The translations under genes and the position numbers were made by a program. From assembly GCF_003019035.1 (NCBI RefSeq), contig NZ_CP027447.1: a stretch of 64,000 nt of DNA. The stretch is one strand, 5' to 3'. The DNA comes from Escherichia coli. GTDB lineage: Bacteria; Pseudomonadota; Gammaproteobacteria; Enterobacterales; Enterobacteriaceae. Shown in pieces: positions 19,395-24,635 of this stretch (position 1 is the first letter of the stretch; every line of letters begins with the position of its first letter). A model generated the notes under the pieces. The model saw nothing but the letters and a program-made list of their open reading frames with translations. It was not told where the DNA came from and did not search any database.

Positions 19395-22300
19395 TTAAAG
19401 TGATTTACGGCAGGCGGTCAGTTGGGGGCTGGAATCAGCGTCGCTTCCGGTCATACCCGTTAGCATCTGCACATAGTAGTGCCGATTGTAATCATCAGAT
19501 TCACTTGTCCAGTAAGCACCTTGTGTAAATTGCGAATTACTGGAAAACGCTCCAACGTTCCCCCATTCACCATATAGCGATCCCTGCGTGCGTTGGTTTT
19601 CGCCAGACGTCAAATGTGTGATGGCAGGAAGATTATATCCATCATTTTTAGCATGACAGAGCGCATTGGCAGCTAGCCAGATATTGGTATGATTTCCATT
19701 ATTCACCCACCAGCCTTTCAGCTTAATTAAGGTCTGGTAGGTTGTACCTCCTTGTCGGGGAACAGCGCTTATTGTGACTGACGTTTGATCGCCGATATTT
19801 GCGAAAGAAACCTTACCTGAAGCATCGACCGACACCCAACTCTGTGAACTTGAAAACATATAATCATCAACGGTTTTACCCGCTTCAAAGTTATCATTGT
19901 TGAGTGTGTAATACGCTCCTGCAAAACCTTCGCTCGGGAATTTAGCCGTTGAGAAGGTATGGTTGTTTGCAGTGACATGACCGGACATTTCTTTTATCGA
20001 GCGGATGAGATTCAGCGATACGCTTAAGTTTGCCTGATGAACCCCGTTCAGCATGGGAATGAGGGTCGCTGTCCCCTCTTTTCCGCCAGTGACAGTCACG
20101 GTGTACTCGCCATAATTTCTCTGGCTGTAATCAATATCGCTCAACTTGAGAAAGTTCACAAAGGGGCCTGACTGGACAAATTCCAGATGATCAGACGTCA
20201 CTATCGGGTTACCGTACTTGTCTTGCAATGTTAGCGTAAGTTTTGCGCTCTGCTGGTAGTCAGCCTTCAGAGTGTCAACGTCGGATTTCAAAATTGACTT
20301 ACTTTCATCGGCCGTGCCGGCAACCAATGTAATGGTTGCGGATTGGTTGGCTGTACCAGGAACTTGCACATTGACCGTTAAGGTTTCTGCCAATGTACTG
20401 GTTATTGTCGCCGTGACTTGCCCGGACTGATCGGTACGCGTAGTTGGAATATTAACTACCGGGCTGCCTTTGGTGTCTAAGGCATAACTAACATCGACAC
20501 CTTCAACCGGGAATCCGTAATCATCTTCTACTCGTGAAGTGATGGTGCTGCTATCAACGCCGTCGGCGGTTATGGTGTCAGGGGAGGCCACGACGCTCAC
20601 AACATGTGCCGTTTTAGCATCTGCCTTAACCGCAACCGTTACCTGGCTCTGAACGGGAACATCTTTGCCCATTGTGGCCGTAACGGTATAGACATTCACT
20701 TTGTTACTGGTCAGCGTCACTTTGGCCTGACCAGACTGGTCAGTAAGGACTTCCCCTGTATTGCTTAGCGTTGCACCTTCAGGCGTTACGCTAAAGGTGA
20801 TAATTTGCCCAGGCATCAATTCATCCCGCGCATTTCTCGCCGTTGCGGTAAGCGTAATACCTTCACTGTTATGGACCGTGGTTTCTGGCTTCGATGATGT
20901 TAACTCGAGCTTGCCATTTGCCACATTCACGTCAACCTTACTACTACTGTTATTGTCCAGCGTTGCCGTCACCTGATAAACCCCAGGCTGGGTGCTGAGA
21001 AGGTTAACGTACGCGTAACCGTTATTATCGGTGTAAGCCGTATCGCCTATCGTAATGTTAGCTGTTGGCTGCGCACTTAATCTGACGCGTTGACCTGATA
21101 TTACATTGTTAAACGCGTCCTGGACGAGTATCCGTAGCGTGATGTTTTCGCCAACCGTTATCGTTTTTTCGGCTCCGGTTATACTTATTACCTTCGCCGA
21201 ACTTTCATCCGGGAGCACTGATAAACTAAACGTTTTATTATCGGAGGGCTGCGCTTTCCGGCTCACCACGACGTTATGTTGTCCGGCAATATTGCTGGTC
21301 ATTGTTACCGTCGCCTGACCCAGCGTATCGGTGGTGACTTCTGTTCCGCTTAGAGTGACATCGTTACTCTGGAAAGTGACCAGCTGGTCTTTAAGCGGAT
21401 TTTGGTAAGCGTCCAGGATCGTTGCAGTCAGGGTACTCCCCGTACTGTCACCCGCAACAATGGTATTTAATGAGGCAGTCAGCGGCTGGAGCTGCGCACT
21501 GTTTGTATCCCCAATAAAAGTGACTTGCTGATGAGCAACGGTGTTATTTCTGGTCAGCGTCGCCGTAACTGTAAACTCACCCGCTTTTGTGCCTCGCAAT
21601 GTAACCACGGCATCACCGTTTGCATCGGTGCGGGCGGTTTCACTACTTAGCGTGAAGTTCCCGGTCATGGAGGCTGGCAAGGTAAATTTCACATCCTCAT
21701 CCGGCAACGGGTGTCCATAAACATCTTTCACACTGGCTGTCAGGATAACGGTATTTGTATTGTTAGCGATCGCACTGCCCGACCCGGCATTTAAGGTCAT
21801 TACCGATTGTTCCCTGTTTGGGACCACGGTGATCGTGACCGACTGGTGAATATTTTTATCCGCCTCAAGCGAGGCATCGACGGAATAGCTACCAGCTTTT
21901 GAACTGGTCAGGTGCACTCGCACAATACCGGACTGGTCTGTTGTGGCGGTCGTGTTGTCCAGTTGCGAGCCACCAGGTGCCACAAAATTCACTTTCATAT
22001 CTTTTAACGGGTTGTTATGAAAGTCTGTGACGGTGGCGGTCAGAGTACTGCCCTGGCTGTTGCCAGCAATAATGGTATCTGGATCGGCAACCAGTTGTTT
22101 GAATTTTGGCGTACTCGAATCGCTAACGAATTTCGCAATTATCCGTTGTGAGAAACCATTTGGCAGCGTGGCACTAATCGTATTTTCTTCCGCAACCTGA
22201 CTTACCATGTTGATTGTGGCAACACCATATGCATCCGTATTTTGCTGCGGCGGTTCGACAAATTCAGCGCTTCCTTTTTCATTCTTAAAGGTGACCTGAT

Positions 22301-24635: not shown

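Follow-up and report, generated by a model that had tools for sequence, protein, structure and literature searches.

The stretch of DNA analyzed here, which we call the window, comprises 64,000 nucleotides of the Escherichia coli contig NZ_CP027447.1 (assembly GCF_003019035.1) and carries, between kptA and yjiJ, a gene for a large adhesin that had been predicted from the sequence alone as a single 5.2-kb open reading frame (ORF) of 1746 aa. The ORF list and the translation bear this prediction out at its exact coordinates: the ORF occupies positions 19395-24635 on the minus strand, has a ribosome-binding site (GGAAGG) 5 nt before its ATG start, and runs to the stop codon without interruption, and a check for a hidden frameshift found none in this copy. 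The gene kptA is convergent with its 3′ end, and yjiJ (24846-26024, minus strand) lies upstream on the same strand. We consider it very probable that the gene is an intact allele of iatD, which encodes an inverse autotransporter (type Ve secretion) adhesin, and that it lies within a 10.3-kb alternative haplotype and is not a lone insertion. The features of the locus are collected in table 1.

Identity and distribution of the gene

We surveyed 5426 complete E. coli genomes by megablast and blastn and found full-length iatD in 638 of them (megablast; top match 99.7% identity), with matches at 90% identity or more in 640. The annotation of the genomic matches in RefSeq is uniformly "iatD: inverse autotransporter IatD", and the placement between kptA and yjiJ is common to LR-28, O157 644-PT8, and SMS-3-5. 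It was Goh et al. (2019, mSphere, PMC6714894) who gave the gene its name, surveyed it, cloned it, and determined its phenotype; they used EcSMS35_4876 of SMS-3-5 (5241 bp) and reported that amino acid conservation within the IatD group exceeds 98%. The window gene also has 5241 bp and is 99.3% identical to EcSMS35_4876 at the nucleotide level; near-identity, equal length, and the position between kptA and yjiJ place it in this orthologue group. The two proteins differ at 8 of 1746 residues (from window to SMS-3-5: T154P, S481R, D1103N, P1130V, L1213I, V1296I, T1420I, and N1668T), and no difference in function is expected. Given the RefSeq name and only eight differences from the published protein, the gene is therefore already described, and nothing contradicts its identification as IatD.

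A complete iatD has been reported in 6% of 126 genomes and in 10% of ECOR strains, and IatD of SMS-3-5 was detected on the cell surface by immunofluorescence and promoted the formation of biofilm upon overexpression in a K-12 flu mutant, with neither autoaggregation nor binding to extracellular matrix proteins (PMC6714894). Surface display and promotion of biofilm are experimental findings for this 99.5%-identical protein and are predicted by homology for the window allele.

In O157 644-PT8, iatD has 5242 bp and is annotated as frameshifted, as is kptA of the same genome. An additional C makes a tract of eight C's at gene position ~177, and the reading frame ends at codon 66. In O55:H7 RM12579 the tract counts seven C's and iatD is intact, and at the same site (~24455-24462) the window gene reads TCCGTCCCCT, without a long homopolymer. 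By its sequence, iatD of O157:H7 is a pseudogene that would have arisen through a +1 slip from C7 to C8, and phase variation is possible. An 81-bp stretch identical to the O157 allele is present in 284 complete genomes, which leaves ~330-350 genomes (~6%) that do not have the frameshift and may have an intact iatD, a figure that takes account of the O157 C8 frameshift only; this ~6% matches the 6% given for the complete gene by Goh et al. (PMC6714894). The O157:H7 pseudogene bears, as an incremental point, on how the presence of iatD is read in the typing of enterohemorrhagic E. coli.

Table 1. Features of the iatD locus and of the remainder of the window, with positions counted from the first letter of the window
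Feature	Position	Strand	Basis or remark
iatD coding sequence, intact	19395-24635	-	1746 codons and stop; RefSeq "iatD: inverse autotransporter IatD" on 99.7%-identical DNA
Predicted signal peptide, long, residues 1-45	24501-24635	-	By inspection; aligns with the YeeJ N terminus
Predicted periplasmic LysM segment, residues 70-118	24282-24428	-	Homology to YeeJ LysM
Inverse-autotransporter beta-barrel translocator, residues 148-423	23367-24194	-	Pfam IAT_beta (PF11924)
Array of ~11 Ig-like domains, residues ~440-1536	20028-23318	-	Pfam: post-barrel domain, nine significant, one weak
Invasin D4-D5-like tip, residues 1537-1746: Ig-like D4 and predicted lectin-like D5, two Cys	19398-20027	-	phmmer, Pfam
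Alternative haplotype block, 10.3 kb, relative to K-12	19242-29511	.	blastn of the window against K-12
kptA, 194 aa, last 10 codons inside the block	18690-19274	+	K-12 kptA ends at codon 184
REP-type dispersed intergenic repeat	19285-19356	.	blastn
Hairpin, perfect 11-bp stem and 6-nt loop	19352-19379	.	Begins 15 nt beyond the stop codon of iatD; lies between convergent kptA and iatD
iatD upstream region, AT-rich, GC 0.34, 210 bp	24636-24845	-	Ribosome-binding site and weak sigma-70-like matches only
Divergent yjiJ-yjiK alleles	24846-26937	-	81% nt and 90% aa (YjiJ) relative to K-12
espX6-like pentapeptide-repeat gene, 657 aa, GC 0.345, not in K-12	27200-29173	-	Annotation of the O157:H7 orthologue
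dhaR	10027-11976		GimA-like island
ibeA	12263-13633		GimA-like island
nhaC-type antiporter gene	13648-15051		GimA-like island

Architecture of IatD and its relatives

An intimin/invasin-type protein had been proposed, and domain searches confirm the barrel on which this proposal depends: Pfam IAT_beta matches at E=5.6e-109 in a region N-terminal to the passenger, and the barrels of invasin (4E1T) and intimin (4E1S) in the PDB match at 6e-83 and 1.8e-68, respectively. By inspection, the N terminus has the features of a signal peptide (a basic RR, a hydrophobic core, and an AxA motif), with predicted cleavage after A43-T44-A45 and before Q46. With an N-terminal barrel, a Sec signal peptide recognized by inspection, and a C-terminal passenger of immunoglobulin (Ig)-like domains, the protein belongs by its sequence to the intimin/invasin-type inverse autotransporters.

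The LysM-like segment that had been predicted in the N-terminal leader is supported by its 44 of 49 residues identical to the LysM of YeeJ, a 49-aa domain that binds peptidoglycan experimentally and whose bounds are those of the deletion primers of Martinez-Gil et al. (2017, PMC5595812). LysM chains in the PDB give marginal matches to IatD (E=0.009-0.09, with 4UZ2 at E=0.009), and the Pfam LysM model reports none. Because the peptidoglycan-binding LysM of YeeJ itself scores only E=0.22 against that model, the negative Pfam result for IatD reflects a weak model and not the absence of the domain, and IatD probably carries a LysM, as do the large type Ve members.

At least ten Ig-like repeats had been expected, and Pfam identifies ~12 Ig-like units, comprising nine Big_1/Invasin_D3 units at E<0.001 (residues 537-1536), a weak tenth Big_1-like unit (residues 640-714), a post-barrel domain, and an Invasin_D4 domain in the tip (E=1.1e-5). 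The C-terminal 300 aa align to D4-D5 of Yersinia invasin (1CWV; phmmer E=5.5e-12), and in this alignment the first Cys of the IatD tip falls on a disulfide Cys of invasin, in support of the Cys-containing, lectin-like tip of the original prediction. D5 alone matches D5 of 1CWV weakly (E=0.011). The tip is also 49% identical to that of YeeJ, which matches Pfam Intimin_C at 0.0014; IatD has no match to Intimin_C, and neither LysM nor Intimin_C appears in the Pfam sets precomputed for 120 IatD clusters. The lectin-like tip is therefore a predicted feature, supported by homology.

The tandem Ig-like repeats had further been regarded as a substrate for recombinational length variation, a view that the data do not support. 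Tandem Repeats Finder detected no tandem DNA repeats inside iatD, and a search for direct repeats gave just two pairs of 20-25 nt with 72-75% identity. No pair of Ig units exceeds 52% DNA identity (median 49%), and exact words common to two units are 12 nt long at most. Comparison of strains revealed no variation in repeat number: among the genomic matches listed, full-length iatD is 5241 or 5242 bp throughout and in one piece, of the 120 best-scoring protein clusters one has 1747 aa and the others 1746 aa, and Goh et al. likewise found repeat-number variability absent in iatD (PMC6714894). Given this low identity, the lack of any shared word above 12 nt, and the constant length, the array is not a recombination substrate, its units having diverged too far to bring about changes in length.

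Yersinia invasin shares with IatD a homologous barrel, a homologous D4-D5 adhesive tip, and the conserved disulfide Cys, but its passenger has 4-5 domains, compared with ~13 in IatD. At the alignment column of invasin Asp911, which we take to be, in both numbering and role, the residue critical for integrin binding, IatD has Asn. Intimin (Eae) follows the same type Ve plan of LysM, barrel, Ig-like domains, and lectin-like tip, of which the LysM and the lectin-like tip are predicted features in IatD; it differs in that iatD is not part of the LEE island and lacks a Tir partner, and the passenger of IatD is much longer. YeeJ of E. coli K-12 resembles IatD in overall architecture, in the tip, and in the N-terminal 450 aa, which include the signal peptide, the LysM, and the barrel and are 77% identical, as well as in its published phenotype of biofilm formation without binding to extracellular matrix proteins (PMC5595812). 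However, yeeJ lies beside asnT and exceeds iatD in length, with 2339 codons in the K-12 annotation, its product has another Ig-domain array, and YeeJ occurs in two variants of different length, in contrast to the length-invariant IatD.

Curated NCBIfam models, with cut-offs of 999 for SinH (NF033423), 1400 for intimin (NF033627), and 2400 for the N-terminal region of IatC (NF040978), were also compared with the protein. IatD scores 367.1 bits against the intimin model and 1123.9 bits over residues 12-838 against the IatC model, to which it is related without being IatC, and the Ilp and YchO models were likewise rejected on their curated cut-offs. The suggestion that the gene may correspond to a described E. 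coli intimin-like adhesin proved right, the adhesin being IatD, but its further qualification as SinH-like did not. Were the gene the E. coli counterpart of SinH and its product an adhesin of the SinH/IatB group, the match of the SinH model at E=5e-90 would be explained; this match, however, covers only the shared barrel (residues 123-439), and its score of 302.8 bits is far under the cut-off. SinH/IatB proteins have ~725-743 aa (about 730 aa) compared with 1746 aa, and they have another passenger, so that the barrel is all that they have in common with IatD. The SinH orthologue of E. coli is IatB, encoded at another locus (Goh et al., PMC6714894), whereas the RefSeq name of the window gene is iatD, and we give the SinH assignment practically no weight.

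By analogy with intimin, invasin, and YeeJ, IatD would be exported by Sec through its long signal peptide, its periplasmic LysM would anchor or dimerize the protein on peptidoglycan, and its N-terminal barrel, of 12 strands, would insert into the outer membrane. The C-terminal passenger would then be threaded outward through the barrel by hairpin-type export and would project from the cell as a rod of ~12 Ig-like domains that ends in a disulfide-held, invasin D4-D5-like tip with a lectin fold.

The 10.3-kb block and its origin

In K-12 MG1655, kptA and yjiJ are 12 bp apart. The original statement that K-12 has no gene between them is thus correct, but the strain-specific unit is a block of 10.3 kb and not an insertion of iatD. 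Homology to K-12 at 98% stops at window position 19241, inside kptA; the region 19242-24867 is replaced in K-12 by 37 unrelated bp; yjiJ-yjiK (24868-26928) has only 81% identity to K-12; and 26929-29511, which carries a pentapeptide-repeat gene (GC content 34.5%) for a 657-aa product, has no counterpart in K-12. Identity to K-12 is back to ~96% from position 29512. The block boundary at codon 184/185 of kptA is reflected in two C-terminal forms of KptA: block carriers have a protein of 194 aa, and K-12 and an Escherichia-like outgroup have one of 184 aa. YjiJ of the window is 89.8% identical to that of K-12 at the protein level and 81.8% at the DNA level, which indicates that the divergence is old and mostly synonymous.

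The two allele types of yjiJ-yjiK are sharply separated, because among 5376 genomes the identity to the window is at least 95% in 636 and 80-90% in 4740, with none between. The O157:H7 orthologue of the pentapeptide-repeat gene is annotated as "T3SS effector pentapeptide repeat protein EspX6" (T3SS, type III secretion system), and the espX6-like gene is present in 635 of the 5426 genomes. The length of this gene differs by strain, with 1974 bp in the window and 2208 bp in O157 and with indels in the repeat region. The genome totals for the parts of the block are nearly equal (iatD, 640; window-type yjiJ-yjiK, 636; espX6-like gene, 635; hairpin region, 639), and the layout is identical in four carriers, namely the window, LR-28, O157, and SMS-3-5. 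We conclude that iatD, the divergent yjiJ-yjiK, and the espX6-like gene are one 10.3-kb haplotype block, present in ~12% of complete E. coli genomes.

The absence of mobility genes, part of the original prediction, is borne out, as neither the window ORF list nor the RefSeq annotation of three carriers contains an integrase or transposase near iatD, and the longest words shared at the edges are 8-mers, the level expected by chance. A genomic island or mobile element insertion was rejected on these two grounds and because the core genes next to iatD are divergent alleles as well. An insertion of iatD alone into a K-12-like kptA-yjiJ junction, through an unrecognized mobile element or illegitimate recombination at the REP element, would fit the gap of 12-18 bp seen in K-12 and in an Escherichia-like outgroup as well as the position of the REP element at the 3′ end of iatD, REP elements being known sites of rearrangement. 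We nevertheless hold it to be very unlikely, since the neighboring yjiJ-yjiK alleles, at 81% identity to K-12, track iatD almost perfectly and without intermediates, the espX6-like gene that is missing from K-12 tracks it too, and the iatD edges have neither direct repeats above the 8-9-mer level of chance nor mobility genes. Genomes that combine iatD with a K-12-type (>95%) yjiJ are nearly absent. As a single block, the region would have been exchanged or inherited by way of its homologous flanks, kptA on one side and ytiA/yjiL on the other, without mobility genes.

The native form of the locus was assessed by a degenerate DNA scan of species-representative genomes for one YjiJ motif, which returned 13 loci. 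In E. whittamii, Escherichia sp. E1V33, a divergent "E. coli", and an Escherichia-like metagenome-assembled genome (MAG) labeled Citrobacter, yjiJ is 92-98% identical to K-12 and ~82% identical to the window, and the MAG shows an empty junction between kptA (184 aa) and yjiJ. Citrobacter alleles of yjiJ are 68-71% identical to both allele types, and in a neighbor-joining tree yjiJ of the window and of O157 falls outside all sampled Escherichia alleles but inside Citrobacter. Because other Escherichia have K-12-type alleles, the K-12 form is most simply read as vertically inherited and the block as foreign or as a very old alternative haplotype. Comparison of the window with O157 gives 97.5-98.3% in the flanks, iatD, and yjiJ-yjiK alike; the divergence of the block among carriers thus keeps pace with that of its flanks, and it has long been established in those lineages and does not represent a recent sweep.

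We tentatively put forward, as a possible history, that the block is an ancient haplotype introgressed from an unsampled lineage that branched before the split between E. coli and its sampled sister species, and that it persists as a long-lived presence/absence polymorphism in ~12% of E. coli, coupling an adhesin, inactivated in O157:H7 by the homopolymer slip, with a putative type III effector. If the block were the ancestral state of E. coli, with iatD and espX6 deleted in K-12 and most strains, its age in the carrier lineages, as indicated by the divergence in step with the flanks, would be accounted for, and the ongoing decay of iatD and kptA in O157:H7 would fit as well. Deletion does not, however, explain the 18% nucleotide divergence of the retained yjiJ-yjiK, and the K-12-type alleles of E. 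whittamii, Escherichia sp. E1V33, and the two further Escherichia-like genomes leave the window type outside the group. In addition, the passenger half of IatD has no relative in 100,044 species-representative genomes, in a search by exact 8-residue peptide seeds whose sensitivity is limited to close relatives. An ancestral block therefore appears improbable.

Several points are weak in the preferred account of an IatD allele within an alternative haplotype block. The genome scans did not reveal the donor lineage of the block, and E. albertii and E. fergusonii gave no match to the one yjiJ DNA pattern used, either the motif or the gene being absent. Co-occurrence of the block parts genome by genome is shown in the four carriers, and for the rest it is the totals that match. 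Within the protein, the LysM and the lectin-like tip rest on transitive homology, with no direct Pfam match for either, and the single-sequence AlphaFold2 models of both regions were too poor for use (mean pLDDT of 59.8 for residues 50-150 and pLDDT of 28.6 for residues 1537-1746).

The gene itself is nothing new, IatD having been known since 2019 and being named in RefSeq. The refinement is that the adhesin appears to travel in a single block exchanged by recombination, together with a gene for a putative T3SS effector and highly divergent alleles of two "core" genes, which bears, incrementally, on how strain-specific adhesin repertoires assemble without mobile elements.

A contig assigned to "Citrobacter sp." (DXKH01000087.1, from the MAG HRGM_Genome_0066) carries yjiL-yjiK-yjiJ-kptA-yjiH at 95-99% amino acid identity to E. 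coli K-12 and is evidently Escherichia DNA, by mislabeling or bin contamination.

Flanking DNA and other features of the window

A REP element and a perfect hairpin had been described as flanking the gene. Both are present, but both lie on the 3′ side, between iatD and kptA, and none on the 5′ side, so the gene is not flanked on two sides. The hairpin has no T-tract on either strand, was not called by the terminator scan, and is restricted to iatD-carrying genomes. The REP-type element is found in 5425 of the 5426 genomes, where the median copy number is 5 and all copies are in unannotated intergenic DNA (blastn). Promoter and terminator scans of the iatD flanks gave matches at or below the shuffle expectation, and a search of 18600-29600 with Rfam returned no matches. 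By analogy with other E. coli inverse autotransporters, for which it has been reported, H-NS-type silencing may be invited by the upstream region, with its GC content of 34%.

The window strain is a close relative of SMS-3-5, with which positions 1-37773 are collinear at 99.1%. Within this part, a GimA-like island (444-15051) lies upstream of hypT and is not found in K-12 at that position; in addition to the genes in table 1 it carries gcl/hyi/glycerate-kinase and transporter genes. Farther downstream, the variable "immigration control" region contains a restriction-modification cluster of type I (38361-45952, minus strand), which encodes hsdR-like (1091 aa) and hsdM-like (539 aa) products and has further, unassigned ORFs of 475 and 388 aa. 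Since collinearity with SMS-3-5 ends at ~37773, this restriction-modification set differs from those of SMS-3-5 and K-12.

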